Positions 1 through 39,116 are shown, numbered from the stretch's first letter. The stretch: 64,000 nucleotides of DNA from an uncultured Chloroflexia bacterium (GCA_963780425.1 CAWABZ010000012.1:6284-70283); one strand, 5' to 3'. Notes: generated from the sequence alone by a model not told the origin. Translations and numbers: made by a program.

Positions 1-966
1 CCCGGTCATCGGCACCTTGGCGTCCCACAGCGGCGCGCCGTCGGTGTCACGGATGACCAGGTGTGGCGCGGGCCCGAACCCGTTCTGATGGAATGTGTAT
101 CCGCCGATCGCGAGCGGATCGTTGACGCGGATCGTCTTGCGCGCGACCTCGGTCCCGTTCTGGAAGACCGCGAGGTCGGTCGTGAAGTCGGTCGGCATGC
201 CGGTCTCGAAGCCGGGCGCCTCGAAGTCGAGGTTCTTGACCAGCAACAGGTCGCGGGTGCCGATGCTCTGGACGGTCAGCGACTCGCCCTCGGGCACGAC
301 CAGACCTTGCTCGTCGCCGAAGCGCGACGTGACCGCCGCGGCGGCGAGGAAGAGGATCAGGCCGAGGTGGGTCAGGAGCGTGGCGAGCTTCGTGTACTGG
401 TGACGATCGCCGTAGACGTAGGTCGTGCCGTCGGCGGCGGTCTCCTCGCGGACATGGAAGCCCCGCCTCCGGACGAGCCGCAGCAGGTCGGTCCCGGCGA
501 TGCCGGTCATGGCCGCCCGGTCGGGCACCAGCGGATCGAAGAACGGCTCGGGTTGGGCGACCCGCACCGAGGACACGTCCCGCCACAGCCGCGGCGTGCG
601 ATCCAGCGTGCACACGACGATCGACACGACCAGGACGACAAGGCCGATCCCGAAGATCGCCGACTTGAAGATCGAGAACGCGCCGAGCCGCTCGAGGACG
701 TTGACCAGCCCGGGACCCAGCACCGGGTCGTAGCGGATGTGGATCGTCTCGATGGCGTTGGCGTAGTCACCCGGCGACCGAAATGCGAAGTCGGGCAGCT
801 GCTGGAGGGTCATGCCGATGACCGCGAGGATCGACAGGAAGATGATCTGGACGACCGCGAAGTCGACCGACGTCAGCAGGCGCCAGATGCCGCGGCCGAG
901 CTGCGCGAGCGGGTTGGTGGGGATGCCCGCGGCGCTCGTCGCCCGGACGGCGGCCGGTGTCGCCAC
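1..966 (-). CDS. resB: Cytochrome c biogenesis protein ResB/Ccs1 family (5' part; the ORF is still open at the window start, so the gene continues upstream)
   Basis: Reverse-strand frame is open to position 1. Translation shows the ResB-like N-terminus (WRLLTSVDFAVVQIIFLSILAVIGMTLQQLP) followed by TM segments. Candidate GTG start at 966-964; not in the ORF track because it runs off the edge. Confidence 0.65.
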   Translation of the reverse strand, partial: MATPAAVRATSAAGIPTNPLAQLGRGIWRLLTSVDFAVVQIIFLSILAVIGMTLQQLPDFAFRSPGDYANAIETIHIRYDPVLGPGLVNVLERLGAFSIFKSAIFGIGLVVLVVSIVVCTLDRTPRLWRDVSSVRVAQPEPFFDPLVPDRAAMTGIAGTDLLRLVRRRGFHVREETAADGTTYVYGDRHQYTKLATLLTHLGLILFLAAAAVTSRFGDEQGLVVPEGESLTVQSIGTRDLLLVKNLDFEAPGFETGMPTDFTTDLAVFQNGTEVARKTIRVNDPLAIGGYTFHQNGFGPAPHLVIRDTDGAPLWDAKVPMTG

Positions 967-7117: not shown

Positions 7118-8441
7118 TCATGAGCTGCTACGCCGGCGGTTGAAGGTGTCGAAGCCGACCGCGAGGATCAGCACGATCCCCGCCACGATGTTCTGGCCCG
7201 GGGAGTTGACGCCGATGAAACTCAGACCGTACGCGAGCGACGCCAGCACGAAGGCGCCCAGGACTGCGCCTGGGATGGTCCCGATGCCGCCGGCGAACGA
7301 GGTGCCGCCCACGACGGCCGCGGCGATCACATAGAGCTCGTAGCTCTGGCCGACATCGAGAGTGGCACCGTTGAGCCGCGCGGATGCGATGGCGGCAGCG
7401 AGGGCACACAGCACGCCCATCAAGACGTAGGTCTTCAGGATCGTCCAGCGGGTATTGATGCCGGCCAGCTCTGCGGCGTCTGGGTTGCCTCCGTAGGCGT
7501 AGACGTACCGCCCGAACCGTCGCCGGTTGGCGATGAATGTCATCACGAGGGTCACGCCGATCAGCAGCATGATCGGGTACGGGAAGCCGGTCGGGATCTT
7601 CCAGCCGCCTGCGGGCGCCGGCCCCCAGTTCTGCTCGATCGCGATCCGATTGGCGAGGCCCTGCGGCCAGAGGTTCGCATTGGCGAACGCGGCCACTCCG
7701 AGGACTGCGACGCAGCCGATCACCCCGAGCAGCACCTCCGCCCACATCGGCCGCAGCGGGAAGCCGAACCTTCGCCGCTGTCGTCGGCCGTTGATGAGCA
7801 ACCCGATGATCGCCACGCTTCCGATGATGCCGACGACCCAGGTCGCCGGGCCCCCGATGGAGCCGATCGCTCCGCCGCCGATCAGCTGGAAATCCCGGTC
7901 CAGCCCGGATACCGCGGCGCCGCTCGAGAGGTACCACACGAAACCGCGGATCGTGAGCAGACCGCCCAGCGTGACGATGAACGAGGGCACCCCGACGTAG
8001 GCGATGATGAAGCCCTGCAATCCACCGATGGCGGCGCCCATGAGCGATTCCCATGCCGAGGGCGATGACCCAGCGGAAGGGGAAGTCAGCGGGCAGGCCC
8101 AGCACGTCGGGCAGGATCTCGGTCATCAGGAGCGCATAGGTCATGGCGATGATGCCGACCAGCGATCCCACCGAAAGGTCGATGTTGCGCGAAACGATGA
8201 CCAGGACCATGCCGGTCGCGATGACGGCGATGCCCGACGCCTGGACGGCCAGGGTGACCATGTTGGTGGGCTGGAAGAACTTGCCCCCGCTCAGGATGTT
8301 GAACGTGAGGAGGATCGCCGCCAGCGCGACCAGCATCCCGAACAGGCGGAGATCGATCTCCGTCGCCGCGATGAGTCCGCGGATCGAGGTGCGAGGCGGC
8401 GCCTGCGCCTGACCCGGAGCCGCGTCGGCCACGTTCGTCAC
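7118..8441 (-). CDS. Sugar ABC transporter permease (XylH/branched-chain-type), frameshifted by a 13-nt insertion near 8035-8053
   Basis: N-terminal half (NIDLSVGSLVGIIAMTYALLM ... WVIALGMG) is in one frame. The C-terminal half (AAIGGLQGFIIAYVGVPSFIVTLGG...) is in another. The junction shows duplicated cccatg flanking agcgatt. GTG start at 8441 with GGGAGG RBS. Confidence 0.8.
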
Positions 8442-14123: not shown

Positions 14124-15827
14124 GTGCCACCGCCCGTGTCGACCACCACCCGCGCTCGAGGCGTTACCCGCGGTGCTCGGCTGGTCGTGATCGCGCTGGT
14201 GGTCGTCGCCCTCGTGGCCGGGGGTCTCCTCGTCGTCCGGGCCCTGTCACCGGCGGGATCCGTCGCATCGGGGCCGCCTGTCGCGCTTGATCCGCCGCAC
14301 CTCATCGAGGAGGCGGTGGAGGCCGGAATCGAGCACACGTATGCGGGGGATTACCCGTACGTCGTCGGTGGCGGCGTCGCGGCGTTCGACTGCGACGACG
14401 ACGGGCAGACGGATCTCTACCTGGCGGGCGGGGAGGGCAACGCGGGGCTGTACCGCAACCGGAGCGAGATCGGCGGCGCGCTCCGGTTCGAGCAGGCCGC
14501 GGATCCCTCGACGGACCTGCCATCGGTCACCGGGGCGTACCCCGTCGACATCGACGGGGACGGTCATATCGATCTGGCCGTGCTCCGACTCGGCGAGGAC
14601 GTGATCCTGCGCGGCCTCGGCGACTGCCGGTTCGAGCGGGCCAACGAGTCGCTCGCCTTCGATGGGGGAAGCGGCTGGACCGTCGGGTTCAGTGCGACAT
14701 GGGAGTCGCCGGGGGCGGCCCTGCCGACGCTCGCCTTCGGCGACTACCTGACGCTCGACGAGCAGGGCGAACCGGCGAGCGCATGCGCGGACGACCGGCT
14801 CGTGCGACCTGCGATGTCGGATATGACCTACGCCGAGCCCGTCGCGCTGACGCCGAGCTGGTGCACGCTCTCGATGCTCTTCAGCGACTGGGACCGGTCG
14901 GGCCGGCGCGATCTGCGGGTGTCCAACGACCGCCACTACTACCGGGACGGCGAGGAACAGCTGTGGCGGATCGAGGCCGGTCAGGCGCCGCGGCTCTATA
15001 CGCGCGCCGAGGGCTGGGCCCTGCTGCGGATCTGGGGCATGGGCATCGCCAGCCAGGACCTCACCGGCGACGCGTACCCGGAGGTCTACCTGACCAGCCA
15101 GGCCGACAACAAGCTGCAGACCCTGGCGGACGGCCCGACGCAGCCGCGATACGAGGACATCGCGCTGCGGCGCGGGGTGACCGCCCACAAACCCTTTGCC
15201 GGCGGTGACCCACAGGCGTCTACGGCCTGGCATCCGGCGTTCGAGGATGTCAACAACGATGGGTTCACGGACCTGTATGTCAGCAAGGGCAACGTCGAGA
15301 CCCAGACCGAGTACGCCGCGAAGGACCCCAGCAACCTGTTGATCGGCCAGGCTGACGGCAGCTTCGTCGAAGGCGCGCCGGCGGCGGGGATGGTCGGCTA
15401 TGACCGGGTCCGCGGGGCGGCACTCGTGGACCTGAACGGGGACGGGCTGCTGGACGTGGTCCAGGTCGCCCGGCGCGCGAACGTCAAGCTGTGGCGGAAC
15501 GCTGGGTCGGGCGACCGGCAAACGACACGACCGATGGGCCACTGGATCGCCGTGGACCTCCAGCAGGAGGGCTCGAATCGCGATGCCATCGGCTCGTGGA
15601 TCATGGTCCGCACCGGCGGGACGCAGGTCGAGCGCGAGGTCACGGTCGGTGGCGGGCACGCCAGCGGTCAGCTGGTCCCGATCCACTTCGGCCTCGGCGC
15701 CGCCGAGCGTGCGGACGTCCGCGTCACCTGGCCGGACGGCGAGGTCGGCCCGTGGATGCCGGTGGACGCGGACCGGGTCGTACGTATCGAGCGAGGCGCG
15801 ACGGCCGCTCAGCCGGTGAGCCCGTAG
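14124..15827 (+). CDS. FG-GAP repeat / ASPIC-UnbV domain protein (CRTAC1-like), N-terminal membrane anchor
   Basis: 567 aa with Ca-binding loops (DIDGDGHIDL, DVNNDGFTDL, DLNGDGLLDV) and a C-terminal ASPIC/UnbV segment (GGGHASGQLVPIHFGLG). Confidence 0.8.
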   Translation: MPPPVSTTTRARGVTRGARLVVIALVVVALVAGGLLVVRALSPAGSVASGPPVALDPPHLIEEAVEAGIEHTYAGDYPYVVGGGVAAFDCDDDGQTDLYLAGGEGNAGLYRNRSEIGGALRFEQAADPSTDLPSVTGAYPVDIDGDGHIDLAVLRLGEDVILRGLGDCRFERANESLAFDGGSGWTVGFSATWESPGAALPTLAFGDYLTLDEQGEPASACADDRLVRPAMSDMTYAEPVALTPSWCTLSMLFSDWDRSGRRDLRVSNDRHYYRDGEEQLWRIEAGQAPRLYTRAEGWALLRIWGMGIASQDLTGDAYPEVYLTSQADNKLQTLADGPTQPRYEDIALRRGVTAHKPFAGGDPQASTAWHPAFEDVNNDGFTDLYVSKGNVETQTEYAAKDPSNLLIGQADGSFVEGAPAAGMVGYDRVRGAALVDLNGDGLLDVVQVARRANVKLWRNAGSGDRQTTRPMGHWIAVDLQQEGSNRDAIGSWIMVRTGGTQVEREVTVGGGHASGQLVPIHFGLGAAERADVRVTWPDGEVGPWMPVDADRVVRIERGATAAQPVSP

Positions 15828-23769: not shown

Positions 23770-24201
23770 TCAGGCCGTCGCCTTCTGGGCGACCTTTCCC
23801 TGCTGCAGGATCCGGATGGGGTTGCCGAAAGGATCGCGCAGGCCCATGTCGGTGCCATAGAAGTGGTCGGTGGGCTCCTGGGTGAAGTCGGTGACGCCGC
23901 GTGCCTGGAGGGTCTCGTACAGGCCCCGGGCGTCGTCCGTGATGAAGACGAGCCCGCCCAGGGCGCCCTTGGTGATCAGCTCGCGGAGCTGCGCAGCGGT
24001 CGATTCGTCGTGCAGCGGCGGGCCGGGCTGCTCCAGGGAGACCTCGGTCTCCGCGTTGCCGGGAACGCGCACCGTCAGCCAGCGGTAGTCACCCTGCCGG
24101 ACATCGTTGCCGACTTCGAGTCCGAGCTTGTTGACGTAGAAGTCCAGCGCCTCCTCCTTGTCGAGGACATAGATGGAGGCGACGTTCAGCCTGTTGATCA
24201 T
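23770..24201 (-). CDS. VOC (glyoxalase/bleomycin-resistance) family protein
   Basis: VOC fold (IYVLDKEEALDFYVNKLG ... HFYGTDMGLRDPFGNPIRI). Start taken at the internal ATG 24201. Confidence 0.75.
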   Translation of the reverse strand: MINRLNVASIYVLDKEEALDFYVNKLGLEVGNDVRQGDYRWLTVRVPGNAETEVSLEQPGPPLHDESTAAQLRELITKGALGGLVFITDDARGLYETLQARGVTDFTQEPTDHFYGTDMGLRDPFGNPIRILQQGKVAQKATA

Positions 24202-24244
24202 GGCGATCCTCACTTGTGCGTGTTCATCGGGGTTGGTCCCGATC

Positions 24245-24697
24245 CTAGGGCGCTGCCGCACCGGCGGCTTCTCCAAAACTGCTCGATCTCATTGCCTCGC
24301 CGTACCCCACCCGCGGACGCATGGCGGCCAGCTGGACGCAGTTGGGAGCCACCACCGGCCCGTGGCCAGCGCGATAGTGCGACGGCGTCTCGCCGACGAT
24401 CTCCCGGAACATGCGGCTGAAGGTCCCCAGGCTGGTGAAGCCGACGTCGAGGCAGATGTCGGTGACACTGCGGTCGGTCTCGCGCAGCAGGAACATCGAA
24501 CGCTCCACTCGCCGCCGCTGCAGGTATCGATGCGGTGTCTCCCCGAAGACGGCGCGGAAGCTGCGGCTGAAGTGCGCCTCGGAGATATGGGCCACCGCGG
24601 CCACCGCGCGGACATCGAGCGGCTCGGCGTAGGCGCGGTCCATGGCGTCGCGAGCGCGCAGCAGACGCCGGTTCAGATCCTCGACTTCCAGGCTCAC
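24245..24697 (-). CDS. AraC-family transcriptional regulator (HTH_18 domain only)
   Basis: 150 aa with two AraC HTH repeats (SRSFRAVFGETPHRYLQRRRVERSMFLL ... VGFTSLGTFSRMFREIVGETP). Confidence 0.85.
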   Translation of the reverse strand: MSLEVEDLNRRLLRARDAMDRAYAEPLDVRAVAAVAHISEAHFSRSFRAVFGETPHRYLQRRRVERSMFLLRETDRSVTDICLDVGFTSLGTFSRMFREIVGETPSHYRAGHGPVVAPNCVQLAAMRPRVGYGEAMRSSSFGEAAGAAAP

Positions 24698-24795
24698 GTT
24701 GGCACGCTACGCCATCCGCGGGGCGTGTGCTCAGCCCGCCTCCGTCGACAACTCCGGATCGCGCGGAACATACTCGCGCCATCGACGGATGTGGA

Positions 24796-24871
24796 TGGTC
24801 GGGGAGGTGGGACTCGAACCCACGATCTCGTGCTCCCAAAGCACGTGCGTTGCCGACTACGCCACTCCCCG
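24796..24871 (-). tRNA. tRNA-Pro (anticodon TGG)
   Basis: The reverse complement folds as a cloverleaf: acceptor CGGGGAG, anticodon stem cgtgc/gcacg with loop tttggga (UGG), T-arm GGTTCGAGTCC, encoded CCA. Confidence 0.9.
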
Positions 24872-24872
24872 G
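24832..24872. repeat. Left copy of the 41-nt direct repeat (5' half of tRNA-Pro, anticodon loop to 5' end), attL-like
   Basis: gctcccaaagcacgtgcgttgccgactacgccactccccgg. Identical except for one mismatch to 28557-28597. Confidence 0.85.
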
Positions 24873-25009
24873 CGGTTTCGTGCTCCGGGACCGCATGTGC
24901 TCCGGTTCACGGCCGGTGGCGGCTGGCCTACAGCGTTCTAATCGCAATGCTGAACGGTGCTTAGAATCACTCGGCAGCGAGGGAACGCGCTGATCACCAC
25001 CACAGACGT

Positions 25010-25029
25010 GGCTCATCATACGGCCACGT
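25010..25029. repeat. 20-nt repeat ggctcatcatacggccacgt (copy 1), contains minus-strand TATGAT
   Basis: Exact copy at 28609-28628. It lies 138 nt from the tRNA 5' end here versus 12 nt in the right copy. Confidence 0.8.
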
Positions 25030-25155
25030 CGGAGCTTGCGGCGCCCAGCGCGTCCTGGCGCCGCCACCTGACCGTTCAGCGGATGAGCCCGGCGACGCTG
25101 TCGACGTACGGCCCCTCCCGCTCGGCAGCTCGCGCGTTTTCTGGCTGAGCGGTGC

Positions 25156-25720
25156 ATGCCGACATCGCCAGCCGCGATCACCAGAGAGCACGTCGAGGCG
25201 TTCATCACCGATCTACTCGATCGCTGGAAGCCGACGACCGCCCACAACCGCTATCGGGCGGTCGGCTCGTTCTTCCGTTGGCTCGTCGACGAAGGCGAAA
25301 TCAAGAGAAGCCCGATGGATCGAATGAAACCCCCCGCGGCTCTCCGAGACGCCACCGCCGGTCCTGCGCGAGGGCGAGCTGAAACGCCTGTTCGCCGTCT
25401 GCGCGGACCGACAAGACATTCGCCGGCCGTCGAGACGAGGCGATCCTCGCTGCGTTCATCGACACCGGTTGCCGGCGCAGCGAGGTGTTAGGTCTAACGC
25501 TCGACGATGTCGACCTAGACGCTGGAACTCTGCGTGAGGTCGGCGAGAAGCCGTGGGGCGAGAACCCGCCTTTTCGATGCCGGCGTTCGTCCTCACATAC
25601 GAGACCCGCGAGCCCGTTACCAAGGAGGGCGGGACGAGTTACACGGAAGCGACGTCGATGATCGAAGGCTTGAATGTGACGCACCTGTCGTACCTAGCCC
25701 CGAAGCGTCAGGCCCGATCA
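25156..25720 (+). pseudogene. Tyrosine recombinase/integrase remnant (frameshifts and internal deletion)
   Basis: Intact N-terminal SAM-like core-binding domain (ITREHVEAFITDLLDRWKPTTAHNRYRAVGSFFRWLVDEG). Out-of-frame catalytic-domain fragments follow (ILAAFIDTGCRRSEVLGLTLDDVDLDAGTLRVRGEK; C-terminal GGTSYTEATSMIEG resembling the GHSxxxTTxxY region). No continuous ORF. Confidence 0.75.
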
Positions 25721-25840
25721 CCAGGACTGGAATCGCCGCAAACCCGTGACCCTTCGCGCCCGTGTAGCCGGCAATGGACACTGGAACGGGCGCCCATCGG
25801 AACGCTAGTGCCGCCGGGCGCCCTATCCTTGCTGCCGTAC

Positions 25841-27217
25841 TCAGCGAGGCGTCAGTGTGACTTCGCCGCCGGTGTCGCCGGTCCCTTCCTGCTCGCGCTC
25901 CTTGGCCGCGCTCTCCCGCTCACGCCCTCGTTTGGCGCGCTCCGCCTCGCGCGCCTCACGGTCCTGTTCCGCCTGCGCCTTCTTGGCCTCCGCTTCCTCG
26001 TCGCGTTGGCGTTCGGTCTCATCGACCTTGGAGCGGAGATCCTCGACGGCCGGTGCGCTGATGCCCGGCCCCGACGCGACCTCGAGTGTGGCCTCGCCTG
26101 GCCTCTCGGCTCGCATCTCGTCCCGTTGGAAGGCGACCTCCCCCTTGTAGACCGACCCGAGCAGGCTATCGAGCGCGCCCGCGTCGTGGGCGCGCTGGAC
26201 CGCGGCGTGGGTGATCAGATCGCCCAGGTCGAGGATGACGCGATCCTCGAGGTCCAGGAACACCTTCGTGACCGGGCGGCCGACTGCGTCCTCGATCTGG
26301 TCCAGACGGCGCTTGATCTGCTCGTGGTCGACTCTCTTGCCGGCCGCGTCGGTCATCTCGCCGACCTTGCGCGTGAACTTGTCCCACATGCCCGCCGCGC
26401 TGTCGCCGGCCGCGCCCAGCGCATCCTTCGCACTGGCCGCGGCCAAGCCCGCCTCGCCCAGGCCGACGGCGGCGGTCAGATCCGCCAATTTATCGGCCGC
26501 GCGAGCACGTTCGATGTCGTCGCTCGTGACGCGGCGGCCAGCCGGGACCACGACCGCGCCGTTGTCGTCCTCGACGTCCCGCCCGGTGCGCTTCCCGATG
26601 AGGGCGTCCTCTGGCTTGGCCTCCGCGGTGGCGGCCTTGGCGCCGTCGGTGGCTTCGCCCACCGCGCTCTTGGCCTTGTCGCCGACACCGGCGAGCGCAC
26701 CGCTGATACCACCCCGCTGCTGCTCGAGCAGGTCCGCCGTCTCGGGATGGACGTAGGCGACATCGGGACCGACTCGCACGAGCTCCTCGACGGGAACGTA
26801 GCGCGTCCCCTGGGCCGCATCCGTGAAGACGCCGCCGGACAGCTCGAAGCCGAGGATCCGCCCGGTCGGCTCGTCGAAGTAGACGTCGTTGATCTTGCCC
26901 TGGTCGTCGCCTGTCTCGGTGAACACGCGTGTCCCGAGCAGCGACTGGTCGCGCGCGACAATGGACCCGATCTCGGGCACCTCGTTCGCCGCGATCACAC
27001 TCTCGCGTCGGGCGACGACCACCGCGTCGCGACCGAAGCTGACGACTTCCTCGATGGGGACGACGTGGGAGCTCGCAAGGAACCCGCCTTCATCGGCAAG
27101 CAGTCCGACGACGTTGTCGTTGCCGGCGCCGAGGATGACGTCCTTGACCTCGTGCAGACGTGTCCCGTCCGCCAAGCTCAGGATCGGCTTGCCGATCACG
27201 CTCTTGCCCTTGCGCAT
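25841..27217 (-). CDS. Multi-PRC-barrel domain protein with charged C-terminal tail (stress-protein-like)
   Basis: 458 aa with repeated PRC-barrel signatures (VIGKPILSLADGTRLHEVKDVIL; GTRVFTETGDDQGKINDVYFD; RYVPVEELV) and an E/R/K/A-rich C-terminus. Confidence 0.7.
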   Translation of the reverse strand: MRKGKSVIGKPILSLADGTRLHEVKDVILGAGNDNVVGLLADEGGFLASSHVVPIEEVVSFGRDAVVVARRESVIAANEVPEIGSIVARDQSLLGTRVFTETGDDQGKINDVYFDEPTGRILGFELSGGVFTDAAQGTRYVPVEELVRVGPDVAYVHPETADLLEQQRGGISGALAGVGDKAKSAVGEATDGAKAATAEAKPEDALIGKRTGRDVEDDNGAVVVPAGRRVTSDDIERARAADKLADLTAAVGLGEAGLAAASAKDALGAAGDSAAGMWDKFTRKVGEMTDAAGKRVDHEQIKRRLDQIEDAVGRPVTKVFLDLEDRVILDLGDLITHAAVQRAHDAGALDSLLGSVYKGEVAFQRDEMRAERPGEATLEVASGPGISAPAVEDLRSKVDETERQRDEEAEAKKAQAEQDREAREAERAKRGRERESAAKEREQEGTGDTGGEVTLTPR

Positions 27218-27226
27218 GACGGCCTC

Positions 27227-27334
27227 CTACAGGATCGGGGTGAAGAAGTAGAGGAAGGCCGCCACCGCGACGATGGCCAGCACCACCAGGACGACGGCGG
27301 TCAGGCGTCCACGGTTCGACGTCCCTTGAAGCCT
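27227..27334 (-). CDS. Small hydrophobic membrane peptide (35 aa), cotranscribed upstream of the PRC-barrel gene
   Basis: MRLQGTSNRGRLTAVVLVVLAIVAVAAFLYFFTPIL. GAAAGGA RBS. Codon third-position GC rises sharply over the hydrophobic part. Confidence 0.4.
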   Translation of the reverse strand, partial: RLQGTSNRGRLTAVVLVVLAIVAVAAFLYFFTPIL

Positions 27335-27402
27335 CATGCCGACGAGTCCTTTCTCTATGCGCGATCTGAGCATCCGGGCCGACCCGCTCGCGAGGCAAGA
27401 GG

Positions 27403-27429
27403 ATTGTAGCCCCCTCCACGTGCCACCAA
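27403..27429 (-). promoter_or_regulatory. Candidate sigma70-type promoter for the small-peptide/PRC-barrel operon
   Basis: On the minus strand: TTGGTG, 15-nt spacer, TACAAT, ~60 nt upstream of the peptide start. Confidence 0.3.
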
Positions 27430-27860
27430 TTGGTCCGGGATAGCCCGGAGCGTTGCAGGGCTGTTGCGCCCATCGAGCCAAGCCAGACAGGGTGAGTGCC
27501 TTGGGAACCGAGCCGGCCGTCAGGGTCGAGGGTCAGCTGGTGCGCCTCGGTGATCGAGGATGCCGTGAGCAGGAGGTCGAGGTCGGCCCAGACGCGCATC
27601 GAGCGCACGATGCCCTTCCCGGTCGGCATGATGTGCGGTGGACGCATCGCCCGGAAGGCCTGCGCGGAAGGCGGCCGCCGAATAGCGCATCGGCCGGTCG
27701 CAATGGGCTACGTGGCATGGACCACCGCAATGCGGTCGAGCCCTCTCCGTGGATCACCCGCACCGTTCGGCGACCCACGATGTGGTCATCGTGTGGGTCT
27801 TACGGCAGGGATCCCGCCCGTCGATCGACGTGGTCGGCCCGCCGCCCCACGAACACCGGC

Positions 27861-27890
27861 CCGGGCCAGCGTTATGTTAGGTGAACGCTG
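27861..27890. promoter_or_regulatory. Perfect 10-bp inverted repeat GGCCAGCGTT-N10-AACGCTGGCC upstream of the DUF2171 gene
   Basis: ggccagcgtt atgttaggtg aacgctggcc ends ~30 nt before ATG 27920, just upstream of the GAGGAG RBS. It could be a dimeric-regulator operator or an RNA hairpin. Confidence 0.4.
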
Positions 27891-27919
27891 GCCGAGGAGA
27901 CTCAAGGACCGAAGTGCGA

Positions 27920-28189
27920 ATGGCAGACCTCAAGCCTGGCTGGACGGTGGTCGGGAACGACGGACGTCGCGTGGGCGCGGTTCGGGAAGTTGGTCAAAAC
28001 TACGTCCTCACCTCCACCGGGCTGGCGAGCGACATCTACGTTCCCGCATCGGCCATCGCCAATGTCGAGCACGAAGTCGTCCACCTTTCGGTCCCGCAGC
28101 GCGATGTGTCGGAGATGGGCTGGCAACAGCCGCCGCGCGGCGACGATGCCCCAGCGACACCTGAAGCGGACCTACACCGGCACGTCTGA
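27920..28189 (+). CDS. DUF2171 / PRC-barrel-like small protein
   Basis: MADLKPGWTVVGNDGRRVGAVREVGQNYVL...YVPASAIANVEHEVVHLSV is the typical DUF2171 pattern. GAGGAG RBS. Confidence 0.6.
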   Translation: MADLKPGWTVVGNDGRRVGAVREVGQNYVLTSTGLASDIYVPASAIANVEHEVVHLSVPQRDVSEMGWQQPPRGDDAPATPEADLHRHV

Positions 28190-28556
28190 CTGGGCGACGT
28201 CGGCGCCATCGCTAGGGGTCTACAGGCAATCGAAGGACCTTCCGCGGCGAACCCCTCGGTCTATAGACATCGCTACGCTCCCGGACTAACCACTTCGCGG
28301 CCGCCACCGGTCACGGACCCTCGATCCCGACTGTCAAGGTCGCAGCCGGCCAGTCGGTCCGGCCGACCGGGGGTTAGACAACGCGGCGATCTGCCGGCGA
28401 CAGAGTCGCCGCCGTTCGTGTGCGGCATCAATCGGAAAGGCCGCGTTCGCCGCCGCTACTCCACGTGGTCCTCGCGAACCGCAGGATAATCGAGGTTCGT
28501 TCGCTCCCGGAGTCCACGCTCAGGAGCACCCCAGCTACAGCGCTAACGGCCTCAGG

Positions 28557-28597
28557 GCTCCCAAAGCACGTGCGTTGCCAACTACGCCACTCCCCGG
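28557..28597. repeat. Right copy of the 41-nt direct repeat (residual chromosomal tRNA-Pro 5' half), attR-like
   Basis: gctcccaaagcacgtgcgttgccaactacgccactccccgg. Followed 12 nt later by the 20-nt TATGAT-containing repeat (28609-28628), i.e. a promoter-like -10 at correct distance for the ancestral tRNA. Confidence 0.85.
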
Positions 28598-28608
28598 AGT
28601 CCCGACGC

Positions 28609-28628
28609 GGCTCATCATACGGCCACGT
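28609..28628. repeat. 20-nt repeat ggctcatcatacggccacgt (copy 2)
   Basis: Exact match to 25010-25029. Confidence 0.8.
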
Positions 28629-28730
28629 GACGCACTTCCCTCGACGGAGGTCAACGAGGAATTCCCCCACCGGTCTCGACGTCGCAACCGCCGACCAGTA
28701 TGTGAGGATGGCCGGTTGTCCAGCCGGGAT

Positions 28731-29187
28731 CTATGTGCCTGCCAGTATCGGACAGAGCGGCTCCAGGTGGCCACGAAGCTCGCCGGTGACCAGATTCACA
28801 CGCCCGGAGAAGTCATTCAGGCCAGGTTCGAACCCGACCGGTCCTCCGACGCGACCCGAGGCGTATGACTCACCGGTCGCGAGGAACGCGTGGGACGGCC
28901 CGGAGATCTTGATCGTGACCGTCACGCCATTCGCGGGATTCCTCAGCGTGGCGACGAGTCTGCCCGTGATGATCTGCTTGACCGGCTCCCCAGCACTGTC
29001 GAAGTAGGTCGTGATGAACTCTTGGTTCACCGGGAAGGTCGCGACGACGAGGAAGCCGCAGCTCGTGTCCTCGATGACATCGGGTAATACGAACGGCTCG
29101 CGCACCGGCTCCTTCGCCAGGGCGGGGGTCACGAGTGCCAGAGCCGTCACGAGGCACAACGTCGCAGAGATCCAGAGGCGTCGCATC
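28731..29187 (-). CDS. Hypothetical secreted protein
   Basis: ATG 29187 with AGGAGGA RBS. Signal peptide MRRLWISATLCLVTALALVTPALA. Confidence 0.5.
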
Positions 29188-29381
29188 GCCAGTCCTCCTA
29201 GGTCGGGTCGACCTGTGCGTCCCACGACGGCCGAAGCAACCCGGACATCGACCGCGTGCAGCGAGTCCCCCGATCCGATGCCAGCATATGCCGCGCTCAT
29301 CGCAGGGCAAGCCCTCCGGTGCCGATCGGCACCACTAGGCGCGGTGCCGGGTGCGCGTCAAGACGATCACATCGCACGGGT

Positions 29382-29681
29382 TCAAGCCTCGACGTTTCGA
29401 ACTCCGAGGACGCGCGAGCCCTTGCGGTAGGGGTCGAGCGCGACGCGCAGACGATCGACGTCGGCGCTCGTCGCGGCATGGTGACGGTGGAGGTAGTCTT
29501 GGACCTCGACCTCGCGGTAGCGCCTAGTATCTCGCCGGCCGACGGCGATGAACGGCACCTCTTGGGCGGGGATCCGGCGCACCGAACTGGGAGCAAGCCC
29601 GACCCGCTGGGCGACTCCCTCGGTCCGAAGCCTGGTGATGCCGTCTGTCCAGCGTGCGACTGTGCAACCAACCGGAGCCAC
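29382..29681 (-). CDS. Helix-turn-helix DNA-binding protein, excisionase/AlpA (HTH_17)-like
   Basis: GVAQRVGLAPSSVRRIPAQEVPFIAVGRRDTRRYREVEVQDYL matches the Xis/MerR-type HTH_17 pattern. Start uncertain. Confidence 0.5.
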   Translation of the reverse strand: MAPVGCTVARWTDGITRLRTEGVAQRVGLAPSSVRRIPAQEVPFIAVGRRDTRRYREVEVQDYLHRHHAATSADVDRLRVALDPYRKGSRVLGVRNVEA

Positions 29682-29745: not shown

Positions 29746-30806
29746 CTACGGCTTCGGATGCGCCAGCAGGAAGCCCACGACCGAGTCCGCGAAAGCAGCG
29801 GACAGCTCCGGAAAGTGACCGGCGCCGGGGATCGTCCAGAGTTCGACGTGCCCCCCTGGATCGCAGCCGGACGCGACCGCCACCGTCGACTCGGCCGGTC
29901 CGGCGGGTCCATCAGCGACAACGGCCACGTCGACCCGCTGATCCGTTTCGATGAGCTTGGGTTCGCTGCCATCGTAGGCCGCCCACCTCTCCGTCGACTC
30001 CACAGCGCCGGGGATATGGATGGTCGGGGTTGACGTAGCCAGCGCGTGAGGCTCCGGCGACGACGGCAACGGGCCACGGTCTATGTCCATGCCCTGTAGA
30101 GAATCGTCCCATCGGCCGCACCGTGGATGTGCAGCACGCCGACCGGTTCGGACGGCCGGCAGTCGGTCGGGCTCGCGAACGTGGCCGCGCCGAAGGTCGC
30201 GATGGCGGCGACCTCGTCGGCGTGTTCGCATGCCATCCGATAGCTCATGAACCCCCCGTTCGAGTGCCCGACGACGTAGACCCGGCGCGGGTCGATGGCA
30301 GCCACGGATCTCGCCTCCGCGATGAGGCCGTCGAGGTACGCGGAGTCGTCGACCGCCGTGAGATCGATGTCGCAACACGCTTCCGTCGCGTTCCAGAACC
30401 GGGCCCCATGGCTGTCCACGGTGCCGTCCGGGTGGAGGAACGCCATCCCATGGGACGCCGCGACGCGGCCGAGCCGCCAGTAGTCCTCCTGCCACTGGCC
30501 GCTGCCACCGAAGACGTGCAAGAGCATCAGCAATGGCACCGGACCGTCGGCCTCGGGGACGTATAGGGTCGTCGGACGGTCCCCGCCGATCGTTTCTCGC
30601 CGCCCGCCGACGATCGGCGGCGCGGTGGCGGAAAAACTCGGCATGCGTTGTCCGTCCGCAGGTGGAGCAGTCACGAACGTCGGCGGGGTGGTATCGCCTG
30701 GGACGTTCGGGGAGGTCGCGGGGGCCGAGGCGCTTGGCACGGGCTGGCCACAGGCCGCCACCAGGATGCATGCAGCGATCAATGCGAGGGCGCCTGTCCG
30801 CCGCAT
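29746..30806 (-). CDS. Esterase / PHB-depolymerase-like alpha/beta hydrolase lipoprotein, +1 frameshift near 30085-30100
   Basis: Lipobox (LVAACGQ) and nucleophile elbow GHSNGG in ORF 30081-30851. The C-terminus (WTIPGAGHFPELSAAFADSVVGFLLAHPKP) continues in another frame to 29746. Confidence 0.7.
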
Positions 30807-31232
30807 GCCGCAGACGTACTGCACGTCCGTCATGATCCTCTCTGAACACACACAGGGGCCGGGGACGGCAGCGAGCGCAACCGTCCCCGGCCACTACAAG
30901 GCACGGCCCTCGAGTTCGATCCGCTTCGCCACGAGCGATCGTCTCGTCATTTGATGTGGATAACGAACGCTGGCAGGCGTCCCTCAACTCTGAGAGCAGC
31001 TCAGGCACCGATGCTCCTTCCGATTGGCGTGTTTCGGCGCGCCATGAGTATGGGTCTGCCCGTTTGCTAGGGCCGCACTCGATGCTCCCGTTGTTTGGCG
31101 ATCCAGTCCCAGCCGGCTTGCCGATACGCCTGCCGGCCCTAGAGGCCATCCTGCCCCGCACGAGGGCTCGAGGTACGTCAACGCATGCGCTCATTTCGGA
31201 CTTCAGGCGGATGCGGCGGGAAGCGGGTCGTG

Positions 31233-32376: not shown

Positions 32377-34446
32377 TCACGGATACACCGGCTGCCACGA
32401 GAGGTCGCCCGACTGTGCGGCGTACAGGTCCATCGATGGTGCCGTGAGCACGACCGGGGCGGAGTCGCCCGACACGGCTATGGAGGTCACAGAGAACTCT
32501 CCGTCTCCATCGGTACCGAGGTAGAGGAGCCGACGGCCATCCGGTGACCAGATGACGGGCGGGTACGACACAGGGATGGTGCGCGCCCCGGAGCCGTCCG
32601 GGCGGACGAGGACCAAGCGCTCGTCTGGGGCGCCCTTGTTCCCGGTGTAGGCGATGAGGTCGCCGCGGGGCGACCACGATGGACTGCTGCCTGCCCCCAG
32701 ATCGATGTCCGAAGCCGTTCCGTCGATGCGCACGATGCGTAAGGACTGAAGCGTTGAAACGATGAGTCGCGAGCCATCGGGCGACCAGGCCAGGGGCCCG
32801 AAGTAGTCGCCTTTGCGAAGGATTCGCGACTCCAGGCTGTGGGTATCGATGAGCGCGACTCCCGACGGGGGGCTGACGGCGATGACGGACCCATCGGGCG
32901 ACCATTTGAAGGCGAAGTAACCACCCGGAACTACCACCGTGTCGATCGACGGAGGAGAGACGCCCAATGTCGCGATCGACAGAGCCCCCTCGTCGAAGGG
33001 CGCCAATGACTGGAACGCGATCCGCCGACCATCTGGGGACCATTCCGGACACGGCACGGTTCCCCTTCCAACGACCGGAATCCGTGTCTCGGACCCGATG
33101 CGCGACCCATCGCGATCCAGGTTGATGATGACCACGGCTCGCTGGGGCCGCTCAAGCCGTTCGGGGCCCGATGGGCCTGTGCCCTCCCCGTACGCAAGCC
33201 TGGTCCCGTCAGGTGAGAATCTCGGACAGAGCATCCGCCCGTTGTCGGCGCTGGACGCGACGAGCCGGCGCGGCTCGACGCCTTCGCGAACCAGGTAGAT
33301 CTCGCCCGGGCTGCCGCTATCGATCCCCGAGTACCTCATGAACGCCACCCAGCCGTTGGACGCGCGCTGAGCCGGCGGAGGGGGTATGGCGCCTGGCGTC
33401 GCCCCAGGAGGCGCCGTCAGGAGCGGCGCAGGCGTCGCGGAACAGTAGGGATCGAGCGCACATTCCTGCTCGGGCGTGATGCGGGCGACGCCCTCTGGCT
33501 GGACGATGTCGAACAGAGTTGCGGGCTGCTCGCCGAATTCGACATTGGTCACCTCGAAGGTGTTGAACCTGCCGGGAATGGTCTGGTTCGCTTCGTTCTG
33601 CGCAGGGGCGCGGCTGCGCAGCACAAGGGCGGTCTCCGCGTCGATCCAGAGGTCGCCCGCGATGCACGCGACATGGTGCGCGGGTCGTCCTGCGACGTAT
33701 TCCAAGCCGACGTACGTCCAGCCTGCCGCGGGGTTTCCGCCCTCGCCCGCGCGGGTCATCGCGCACCCCTCGCCCGAGTTCAGGACCGGTGCGACGGTTT
33801 CCGCGAGGAGGAACACCCGCGGATCCTCGGAGATGGCGTCCTCCTGCTCGGTCCAGACCCTCTCCGACCCGACCATCTTTACCTCACCGAGCCCAGATCC
33901 GCTCAGGATCCTGTACGTATCGGGCTCGAGCGCATCGAGCGTGGCGTAGCGCTCGAAGCGCACCGCGCCAGATCGATGGATGTAGATCCGACCCTTGATC
34001 GAGCCATCCTCGAGCGTCGTGATGGCTACGGGCGGCAGCGCCGGGAGCCGGTCGTAGACCGACAGGACGAAGGCCGGGATATCCTCCGGCCGCTGTAGCG
34101 TCAGCTCCGGCGTACGGTCGGGCTGGACGACCGCAGGGACGTCGTTCGGCCGCTGTTGGGTCAGCTCCGGCGCAGGGTCGGCCAGGAGGAGGCGTAGCGC
34201 ACCAGTGCCCGCGATGCTGGCGACGGCCAGCGCGATCAACAGGGCGGCGGCGACCAGCAGACTCCGTCGGCGCGCGATGGGGTCGGCGTCCGACAAGGCC
34301 CCGAGGAACGACGGCAATGGACGCTGCTGCGACGTGGTCTCGACCGCCTCGATGATCCGTTCGCGCAGGCCGGGCTGGGCCCGCGCCGGGAGGTGGGCGC
34401 GGAGAGCGGCTGCGAGCTGGGCGTCGGTCACGCGTCGCTCGTTCAT
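32377..34446 (-). CDS. Anti-sigma factor with single TM helix and extracytoplasmic TolB-like beta-propeller domain
   Basis: Start overlaps the ECF sigma stop. Cytoplasmic N-domain, TM (LLVAAALLIALAVASIAG), then repeated WSPDG / FSPDG propeller blades. Confidence 0.7.
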   Translation of the reverse strand: MNERRVTDAQLAAALRAHLPARAQPGLRERIIEAVETTSQQRPLPSFLGALSDADPIARRRSLLVAAALLIALAVASIAGTGALRLLLADPAPELTQQRPNDVPAVVQPDRTPELTLQRPEDIPAFVLSVYDRLPALPPVAITTLEDGSIKGRIYIHRSGAVRFERYATLDALEPDTYRILSGSGLGEVKMVGSERVWTEQEDAISEDPRVFLLAETVAPVLNSGEGCAMTRAGEGGNPAAGWTYVGLEYVAGRPAHHVACIAGDLWIDAETALVLRSRAPAQNEANQTIPGRFNTFEVTNVEFGEQPATLFDIVQPEGVARITPEQECALDPYCSATPAPLLTAPPGATPGAIPPPPAQRASNGWVAFMRYSGIDSGSPGEIYLVREGVEPRRLVASSADNGRMLCPRFSPDGTRLAYGEGTGPSGPERLERPQRAVVIINLDRDGSRIGSETRIPVVGRGTVPCPEWSPDGRRIAFQSLAPFDEGALSIATLGVSPPSIDTVVVPGGYFAFKWSPDGSVIAVSPPSGVALIDTHSLESRILRKGDYFGPLAWSPDGSRLIVSTLQSLRIVRIDGTASDIDLGAGSSPSWSPRGDLIAYTGNKGAPDERLVLVRPDGSGARTIPVSYPPVIWSPDGRRLLYLGTDGDGEFSVTSIAVSGDSAPVVLTAPSMDLYAAQSGDLSWQPVYP

Positions 34447-35042
34447 GACTCGGCCTCCATCGCCCGCTCGAGCGCCCGGCGGGCCGCGTGGAGCCGCCAC
34501 TTCGCAGTTCCGACCGGGATCCCGAACGAGCGCGCGATCTCGGCGACGGGCCGTCCGTCGACGTGGTGAAGCGCAAGGATCGATCTGTCCTCAGGTCGTA
34601 ACCGGTCGAACGCCCGGCTGATCGCGTCCGCGTCAGACACGTCGTCGATCTCCGTTCGCGCGTTCGGGTCGAACGGTGTTTCGAGCGCCGACGGTCCCGG
34701 ATCTGCTGATGATGGCGCGACGCGGACCTCCCGCAGCCGGACACGATGCCGGCGTGCCATCCGTGAGGCATTGGCGACGATCCGATTGAGCCACCCGTCG
34801 AAGGCCGCCGATTCCCGAAGCCTCGGGAGCTGCCGCCACACGGCCACGAATGCGTCCTGGGTCGCATCGGCGGCGTCGGCGTCATTGAGAAGGATCGACC
34901 AGGCCAAGCGATAGCAGCGGTCGATGCGGGTCGCGATCAGGGCATCGAAGGCTGCGGCATCGCCTAGGCGCGCACGACGGACGAGTGCGTCATCCGGCGA
35001 CGTCGCCAAGCTCTCGGCCGCTGCGAACGTGTCCATGGTCAT
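34443..35042 (-). CDS. ECF (sigma-70 family) RNA polymerase sigma factor
   Basis: Region 2 (DAADATQDAFVAVWRQL) and region 4 (DRSILALHHVDGRPVAEIARSFGIPVGTAKWRLHAAR). Start at ATG 35042. Confidence 0.85.
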   Translation of the reverse strand: MTMDTFAAAESLATSPDDALVRRARLGDAAAFDALIATRIDRCYRLAWSILLNDADAADATQDAFVAVWRQLPRLRESAAFDGWLNRIVANASRMARRHRVRLREVRVAPSSADPGPSALETPFDPNARTEIDDVSDADAISRAFDRLRPEDRSILALHHVDGRPVAEIARSFGIPVGTAKWRLHAARRALERAMEAES

Positions 35043-35209
35043 CCCTGTCGGGCGCCCTTCTAGTGTGTTGTCGCCTGTCCAGATGCCGCGAACCTGTCGG
35101 TGGTTGGCTTTGGCGATCCACCGCGAAAGCGATCGACGACGAACCCAAACGCGGCGAAGGCTTGTCAAGGGTGTTAGGCGGCAAGGTCTTGTAGACATCT
35201 CCTACCCAC

Positions 35210-38940: not shown

Positions 38941-39116
38941 ACGGGCGCGAACCGAGCGCCCCGGCGTAACGCCCGGACGTCCCGGCTCGTCGTAGACCCA
39001 GACGCCGGGTGGTCACTGGCAGGCTGATCGACCGCCCGGCGTCTCCATGTCGCGTCCGAGACGGCCTCAGGTAGACTCGGGCGGACCTCGGCCGTCACAG
39101 GGGGACTTCGCCCGTC

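Follow-up and report, generated by a model that had tools for sequence, protein, structure and literature searches.

Decayed remnant of a probable reversed-polarity integrative element at a tRNA-Pro(TGG) gene of an uncultured Chloroflexia bacterium

In the Islander database, 3760 of the 3919 islands carry a 3' fragment of their target tRNA gene (tDNA) and 159 carry a 5' fragment (PMC4383910). A class of attachment sites located at the anticodon loop is recognised in the summary that this source gives of Williams 2002. In the archaea, the element CalSub-E1 recombines with the 5'-distal part of a tRNA-Ser gene (PMC6563490). Here we describe a stretch of 64,000 nucleotides (nt) from an uncultured Chloroflexia bacterium (GCA_963780425.1, CAWABZ010000012.1:6284-70283), called the window in the following, which has a high GC content of 65-73%. 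The segment at 24873-28556, called the islet, is very probably the decayed remnant of a small integrative element that entered a tRNA-Pro(TGG) gene in reversed polarity and formed the inner unit of a tandem array. For comparison, pSAM2 of Streptomyces integrates in a tRNA-Pro gene in the usual polarity, and an element of reversed orientation was reportedly described by Zhao and Williams in 2002.

As in the islands defined by Islander, the islet has an intact tRNA gene at one end, an equally oriented fragment of the cognate gene at the other and an integrase inside, here a pseudogene. The islet abuts the 5' end of the tRNA gene and the 5' fragment is displaced upstream, as in the reversed-orientation class, and the identity block begins at the anticodon stem-loop, as in the anticodon-loop sublocation. 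With the Islander 5'-fragment islands and the element of Zhao and Williams it shares the position upstream of the tRNA gene, the replacement of the 5' portion of the gene, a displaced 5' fragment that marks the far end, a tyrosine integrase beside the regenerated tRNA and an attachment site centred on the anticodon loop. It differs from them in the host, which belongs to the Chloroflexota (Candidatus (Ca.) Limnocylindria), in the tRNA-Pro(TGG) target and in the integrase, which is short, Xer-like and dead at this locus. Classical tRNA-targeting elements such as pSAM2 have in common with it the integration by a tyrosine recombinase, an identity block that starts from the anticodon loop and small plasmid-like relatives. 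The classical elements, however, keep the host promoter, as their block extends to the 3' end, whereas in the window the block runs to the 5' end and the element has to bring the upstream region. The rare 5'-distal recombination is also found with CalSub-E1, which belongs to another domain of life and is likened to the islet by its attachment site alone. The reversed polarity is rare but established, and the islet is a new, dead instance of it. An earlier reading made without database searches, the sequence-only reading, had called this polarity the less common one, and the Islander counts bear this out.

The tRNA-Pro(TGG) gene, its displaced 5' half and the integrase pseudogene

The only tRNA that ARAGORN found in the whole window was a tRNA-Pro(TGG) at 24796-24871 on the minus strand, which was also recognised by Rfam (RF00005, 69.1 bits). 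The gene is chimeric but intact. All 7 pairs of the acceptor stem are present when the sequence is read, and the anticodon (24836-24838) lies in an anticodon loop of 7 nt (24834-24840). The direct repeat of 41 nt noted in the sequence-only reading was found again at 24832-24872 and 28557-28597, in the same orientation and with 40 of 41 nt identical. Position mapping assigned it to the tRNA positions -1 to 40 and so to the 5' half, as had been proposed. It covers the 5' end with the 5' strand of the acceptor stem, the D arm and the 5' strand of the anticodon stem, and also takes in the whole anticodon loop and 2 nt of the 3' strand of the anticodon stem. No further copy was detected in the window when up to 3 mismatches were allowed, and shuffled sequences gave 0 copies.

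The 3' half of the tRNA-Pro is present in a single copy in the window, and the right-hand repeat copy is therefore not part of a second complete tRNA gene, a possibility that the sequence-only reading had raised against itself. Neither ARAGORN nor Rfam recognised a tRNA at 28557-28597, Rfam gave no second tRNA in 24600-28900, and no third tRNA fragment or second 3' half was found in the 64-kb window. By repeat search and position mapping, the left copy (24832-24872) is the attL core, which runs from tRNA position 40 to -1, and the right copy (28557-28597) is the attR core, a displaced tRNA 5' half and not a gene. In every tRNA-Pro case compared, the start of the identity block reads (G)CTCCCAAAGCA.

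A tyrosine-integrase pseudogene was identified at 24993-25547 on the plus strand by homologue alignment and profile search. It begins 121 nt from the 5' end of the tRNA-Pro and corresponds to the residues 3-186 of about 311, in four segments (24993-25118, 25123-25335, 25334-25405 and 25410-25547) with three frame changes. The start codon is lost, with GCGCTGATCACCACCACA in the window versus GCGATGGCACCGATCACCACC in the related loci L087 and L088. When the translation was repaired, it matched Phage_int_SAM_4 (PF13495, 43.2 bits) and Phage_int_SAM_1 (PF02899, 34 bits), both above the cut-offs, and PF00589 with 25.7 bits at the profile positions 2-56 of 172 only, which is the first third. The remnant breaks off where the GKG lysine would stand, immediately after the Arg-I box (TGCRRSEV). 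Of the catalytic features of PF00589 only the Arg-I box is retained; the C-terminal 125 residues are absent, including the catalytic K, H-x-x-R, W and Y, and the residues 187-311 had no match anywhere in the window. In the intact homologues, R162, K186, H254, R257, W280 and Y289 are invariant. Because its catalytic residues are missing, the window integrase is a dead member of the tyrosine recombinase family. The sequence-only reading had seen an integrase remnant within 300 bp of the tRNA, with an intact N-domain and a shredded catalytic domain, and had pointed to the translations of 25156-25720. The remnant and its SAM-like domains were recovered together with part of PF00589, and the remnant is nearer to the tRNA than had been said, but the N-domain is split between frames and has lost its start, the catalytic domain is deleted (187-311) rather than shredded, and no integrase-like sequence was found in 25548-25720.

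The attachment arms were defined by alignment. The P' arm of the element (24873-24992) was delimited by an alignment of 11 P' arms and by comparison with L087 and L088. To the right of the tRNA 5' end, the family has the motifs TTTCRYGCTC, ACCGCACATAA and CCTGCACCGCT-N-AATCGCATATGCTG; in the window they read TTTCGTGCTC (24876-24885), ACCGCATGTG and CCTACAGCGTT-N-AATCGCAATGCTG, slightly degraded compared to the relatives. For the P arm (28473-28556), 13 P arms from 8 loci were aligned. The family motifs to the left of the displaced half-tRNAs are GAAYMGCASRATAA, TTCRCGCT, CACGCTC and CCTRCASCGCT, and all four are present in the window at fixed distances from the core, as GAACCGCAGGATAA, TTCGCTC, CCACGCTC and CTACAGCGCT. 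A motif of the CCTGCACCGCT type lies 13 nt from every half-tRNA. In all loci compared, the window included, the motifs of both arms keep a constant distance to the core, and they are putative protein-binding sites.

A promoter for the tRNA strand was searched by a consensus scan of 24700-25200 (attL) and of the attR region, which gave no site. The P'-arm motifs were considered as -35 and -10 boxes and rejected, as their spacing and key bases do not fit. Since the motifs recur in the P arm, they fit binding sites better than promoter boxes. In the relatives, the last P' motif probably overlaps a sigma-70-like promoter of the integrase gene (TTGCCT, 17 nt, TATGCT), which points in the integrase direction.

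The proposed integration would proceed as follows. By analogy to other tyrosine recombinases, a Xer-like integrase of about 311 residues would recombine attP with the tRNA-Pro(TGG) gene. The attP core would mimic the tRNA-Pro positions -1 to 40, the crossover would take place inside the 7-nt anticodon loop, and the inverted repeat of the anticodon stem would be the likely core binding site. The element entered at the 5' side of the gene and pushed the native 5' half 3.7 kb away, so that the working tRNA is a chimera of the native 3' part (24796-24831) and the 5' part supplied by the element. The DNA upstream of the tRNA is element-derived and presumably includes the promoter, as the geometry requires. 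The remnant in the window is immobile on its own, with an integrase that has no start codon, three frame changes and no C-terminal 125 residues. Since both arms survive, a cognate integrase acting in trans could conceivably mobilise it.

Integrase family and use of the tRNA-Pro(TGG) site

The repaired window integrase was used as the query of a homologue search with a cut-off of E <= 1e-10. It gave 291 homologues, most of them with 309-312 residues and the closest ones 60-80% identical. The intact homologues in this identity range are Xer-like proteins of 311 residues on other Chloroflexota (Ca. Limnocylindria) contigs. Like XerC and XerD, the family has a SAM-like core-binding domain and PF00589 in about 300 residues and no separate arm-binding domain. 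Unlike them, P0003 scored 150.9 and 129.8 bits against the NCBIfam equivalog cut-offs of 335 and 330, and the family genes are found at the ends of mobile elements beside tRNA genes and not at dif-related loci. Publications were searched for a Xer-like integrase clade that is abundant in soil Chloroflexota and has the reversed polarity as a rule, and for the att architecture of such a clade; none was found on either subject, nor on 5' tDNA fragments or Limnocylindria integrases as such, in a coverage that was incomplete and is no proof of novelty.

The contigs of five homologues were examined for their neighbourhood. The genes of P0003, P0011, P0036 and P0103 (L001-L006, L088) start 118-121 nt from a tRNA-Pro(TGG) encoded on the other strand, and this divergent arrangement is that of the window. 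Wherever the downstream sequence of the contigs reached far enough, copies of the tRNA 5' half (gene positions 37-76, plus strand) were seen 3.4-10.8 kb downstream, one each in L002 and L003, two in L088 and four in L001. A metagenome scan with an alignment of 23 integrase sequences added 80 further loci (L089-L168); seven of these, with 69-79% identity (L089-L094 and L101), show the same tRNA-Pro arrangement.

The polarity was then counted for all loci that had at least 200 nt upstream of the integrase gene (n=65), and a tRNA gene was scored when it was within 400 nt upstream. The tRNA was on the opposite strand to the integrase in 42 of the 65 loci and on the same strand in 14, and no tRNA was present in this range in 9. 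The tRNA-adjacent loci accordingly divide into 42 of 56 with reversed and 14 of 56 with usual polarity. The targets on the opposite strand include tRNAs for Pro(TGG), Val(GAC), Ala, Arg, Thr, Met, Ile, Lys and Phe, those on the same strand are mainly Gly and Val(TAC). The gap between integrase and tRNA is fairly constant, with 116-121 nt in the tRNA-Pro subgroup (integrase identity of 65% or more) and 53-144 nt when all loci are taken. In L153, where a Val(CAC) tRNA is on the opposite strand, the 5' half of the tRNA is duplicated, and in the mirror case L168, a Val(GAC) tRNA on the same strand, the duplication extends from the anticodon loop to the 3' end. The integrase family thus recombines at the anticodon loop in either polarity, with the reversed one dominant. 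A contig from IMG/VR (L178) also has the reversed arrangement, at a Val(GAC) tRNA. Remote relatives with less than 50% identity are on viral contigs of 30-55 kb, mostly without an adjacent tRNA, and have little bearing on the clade.

Could the repeat have arisen by a local segmental or partial duplication of the tRNA gene, with the integrase as a coincidental neighbour and without site-specific recombination? The two copies do have the same orientation and are just 3.7 kb apart, and no excision was observed. However, at least seven other loci (L001, L002, L003, L007, L034, L088 and L153) have independent elements whose identity block has its boundary at the same tRNA position as in the window, 39/40, the distance between integrase and tRNA is fixed at 116-121 nt in 18 loci, and conserved arm motifs flank both copies of the repeat. 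We give such a duplication hardly any credence.

The locus itself was compared in a genome scan with one genome per species, in which the adjacent AraC-type regulator was the query. Among the 80 loci obtained (L007-L086; best AraC identity 91%), four share the tRNA-Pro neighbour (L007, L008, L034 and L084). In L008 and L084, the tRNA-Pro stands beside the AraC and glyoxalase genes without a half-tRNA, an integrase or the arm motifs. L007 has a different remnant of 2.6 kb with its own half-tRNA, and L034 has two tandem remnants. As two of these loci are free of an element and two contain other elements, the 3.7-kb segment is not ancestral to the locus, and the site was used repeatedly. By these comparisons, the tRNA-Pro(TGG) site is a recurrent insertion hot spot in the lineage. 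Taken together, the homologue loci, the conserved arms and the element-free L008 and L084 agree with what the sequence-only reading had proposed, and a site-specific integration at the anticodon loop with an element-borne tRNA 5' half is strongly supported by this family-level evidence.

As the family uses both polarities at the anticodon loop, it offers a good system to study how reversed-polarity elements keep their target tRNA expressed. A stronger claim would be that the clade is a lineage specialised for reversed-polarity integration, with the conserved P'-arm motifs (TTTCRYGCTC, ACCGCACATAA) acting as recombination sites and as a portable promoter, and this we think improbable. If it held, each insertion would hand the transcription of a probably single-copy tRNA gene to a mobile element, and the host could depend on the element, or the element could tune the tRNA supply.

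The related intact elements have 3-10 kb and are plasmid- or satellite-like. The element in L001 carries a rolling-circle Rep and that in L003 an AAA_25 helicase together with HNH, and nothing recognisable as a virion gene was seen in these elements.

The far junction and the proposed tandem history

Beyond the displaced half-tRNA, a second direct repeat was found that the sequence-only reading had overlooked. It has 25 nt (25005-25029 and 28604-28628), of which 24 are identical, and shuffled sequences gave 0 matches. The left copy is formed by the integrase codons 7-14 (DVAHHTAT). The same residues are found in P0001 (TTDVAHHTAT) and P0103 (TTDAAHHTAT), and the same DNA is inside the integrase genes of L087 and L088. 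The right copy, on the plus strand, sits 6 nt past the half-tRNA in the junction block AGTCCCGACGCGGCTCATCATACGG and encodes the codons 7-14 as DAAHHTAT, followed by a stop. As these codons are conserved in the integrase genes of other genomes and the match is extended in L169, 28604-28628 is the remnant of a second integrase gene, from its 5' end.

This bears on the claim of the sequence-only reading that a single element had inserted beside native chromosome from 28598 onward, and that the TATGAT on the minus strand (28614-28619) was plausibly the ancestral promoter of the tRNA-Pro. The hexamer is 17 nt from the 5' end of the tRNA fragment, and in relatives native upstream TAnnnT boxes are located at 9-27 nt. 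They read TACCAT in L008 and TACTCT in L084, and in both L034 and L001 the outermost fragment has TAGAAT. It lies, however, inside the 25-nt block, which matches the islet's own integrase codons 7-14 and the integrase genes of other genomes and which extends to codon ~19 in L169. Chance is excluded for an identity of 24 of 25 by the shuffled sequences, and the consensus scan gave no -35 partner for the TATGAT. A native promoter at this position is very unlikely, and with it a single insertion next to native DNA. The far junction is an integrase fragment; the islet is therefore not one clean insertion, and an empty site at 28598 is not expected. In the annotation, the 41-nt tRNA fragment should not be called a gene and the 25-nt integrase fragment should not be called a promoter.

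L169, from the sample ERZ25039582, was the only close relative. It has the same islet and is ~96% identical to the window at the nucleotide level across the flanks and the cargo. At the right junction L169 reads GACGCGGCCCATCATACGGCCACCTCCGAGCTCGA, and its integrase match runs on to codon ~19 (…ACGGCCACCTCCGAGCTCGA…), followed by 2.1 kb without a counterpart in the window. The window has a deletion here between two CCACC microhomologies (28626/28629; 7772-9898 of L169, reverse complement). The lost 2.1 kb held two genes of unknown function with 223 and 328 residues. A second difference is the deletion scar of 262 bp at 25548-25809, where L169 has 2.26 kb with a Transgly_assoc gene and the rest of the integrase pseudogene, up to residue 296. 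In contrast to flanks and cargo, the two share no more than 72-79% identity in the distal P' arm and the integrase remnant (window 24896-25547, L169 ~2030-2688, reverse complement). One of the lineages seems to have had its integrase-proximal segment replaced, perhaps through another integration that was followed by recombination between tandem units.

L087 and the arrays of L001, L003 and L034 have in intact form the order half-tRNA, P' arm and integrase gene. Tandem fragments at tRNA-Pro(TGG) were counted as four within 11 kb in L001 (9808-20700) and as two each in L034 and L088. Since this order is the junction of tandem elements, the right junction of the window is the scar of an older tandem unit. 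From L169 and from the intact arrays elsewhere we infer that the islet was the inner member of a tandem array and that nearly all of the older unit, its P' arm included, has been deleted. The sequence-only view of one islet was correct in seeing an insertion; its right border is not native DNA.

Several points weigh against a reversed-polarity remnant in a tandem array. Neither an excision product nor an empty site bordered by the right flank of the window was observed. The site predicted by the sequence-only reading, with the tRNA-Pro directly flanked by 28598 onward, was not found among the relatives compared. The consensus scan located no tRNA promoter in the P' arm, although the reversed polarity requires one, and the position of the crossover within the identity block is a presumed one. 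Right of 28629, no relative except L169 shows synteny. The outer boundary of the older unit is missing, as the 64 kb contain no third tRNA fragment. The tandem history further requires that a P' arm of ~126 nt was deleted while 25-38 nt of integrase were retained, which is plausible.

The islet could also be only the innermost unit of a larger composite island that fills the variable region from 24873 to ~38983, and the genes right of 28629 would then be leftovers of older elements. The window is not syntenic with L007 and L084 again before 38983-38988, its part at 27.2-35.2 kb has a lower GC content of third codon positions (GC3) than the flanks, and there was at least one further unit, as seen from the integrase fragment at 28604-28628. 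An open reading frame (ORF) of 99 residues on the minus strand (29382-29681) has a weak match to the excisionase-type HTH_17 (E = 0.0087) and may derive from the older tandem unit. This match is below the Pfam cut-off, however, and PHROGs gave no match for the ORF. No tRNA fragment, arm motif or integrase similarity was found right of 28628, and homologues of the secreted protein at 28731-29300 are in ordinary chromosomal contexts in L175 and L177. Otherwise, the homologues of this first right-flank protein have either the same islet beside them, in L169, or unrelated neighbours. Upstream of the tRNA-Pro, the DNA differs in every relative, even between the element-free L008 and L084, neither of which has the window's right flank there, so that the variability alone is no proof of an island. 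We regard the composite island as a tentative and rather unlikely extension of the tandem array proposed above.

At the level of the genome the outcome is ordinary: a dead islet has left behind three cargo genes of the stress type, and the tRNA-Pro is intact though chimeric. The locus cleanly illustrates a polarity that is rare (~4% of the mapped tRNA islands). It has an attP architecture that is well defined and comes from a lineage of uncultured soil Ca. Limnocylindria where elements pile up in tandem at one tRNA.

Cargo and flanking genes

Between the integrase remnant and the P arm, the islet contains intact genes with host-like codon usage. A PRC-barrel protein of 458 residues is encoded at 25841-27217 on the minus strand (PF05239, E = 3.9e-20). 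Its gene is intact, has a GC3 of 0.87 and is 96% identical to that of L169 at the nucleotide level. Just upstream, a small ORF of 37 residues with one hydrophobic segment was called at 27227-27340 on the minus strand; its counterpart in L169 is a called gene of 36 residues. A PRC-like DUF2171 protein of 89 residues (27920-28189, plus strand; PF09939, E = 2.5e-7) is also present in L169. Searches of the cargo genes against PHROGs and NCBIfam gave no match, and no record matched in exact-sequence look-ups of three window proteins.

Right of the islet, the secreted protein (28731-29300) and the HTH_17-like ORF are followed by an alpha/beta hydrolase of the esterase type (30081-30851), a PD40 beta-propeller protein that is possibly an anti-sigma factor (32377-34500) and an extracytoplasmic function (ECF) sigma factor (34443-35090).

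On the other side of the tRNA gene, the AraC-type regulator and the glyoxalase (23770-24697) have counterparts with 75-95% amino acid identity in metagenome-assembled genomes assigned to several phyla. The pair is also found in the actinomycete isolates Nostocoides japonicum, Catellatospora paridis and Actinoplanes sp. Its surroundings mostly have nothing in common, and the pair may thus be a cassette that is prone to horizontal transfer.

Related elements differ in their cargo. L002 encodes a PRC-barrel and a ferritin-like protein (14138-15328), L087 an AbiEi/AbiEii toxin-antitoxin pair (284-1728) and L169 a Transgly_assoc stress membrane protein (7495-7776). PRC-barrel or DUF2171 cargo recurs in three loci, the window, L169 and L002.

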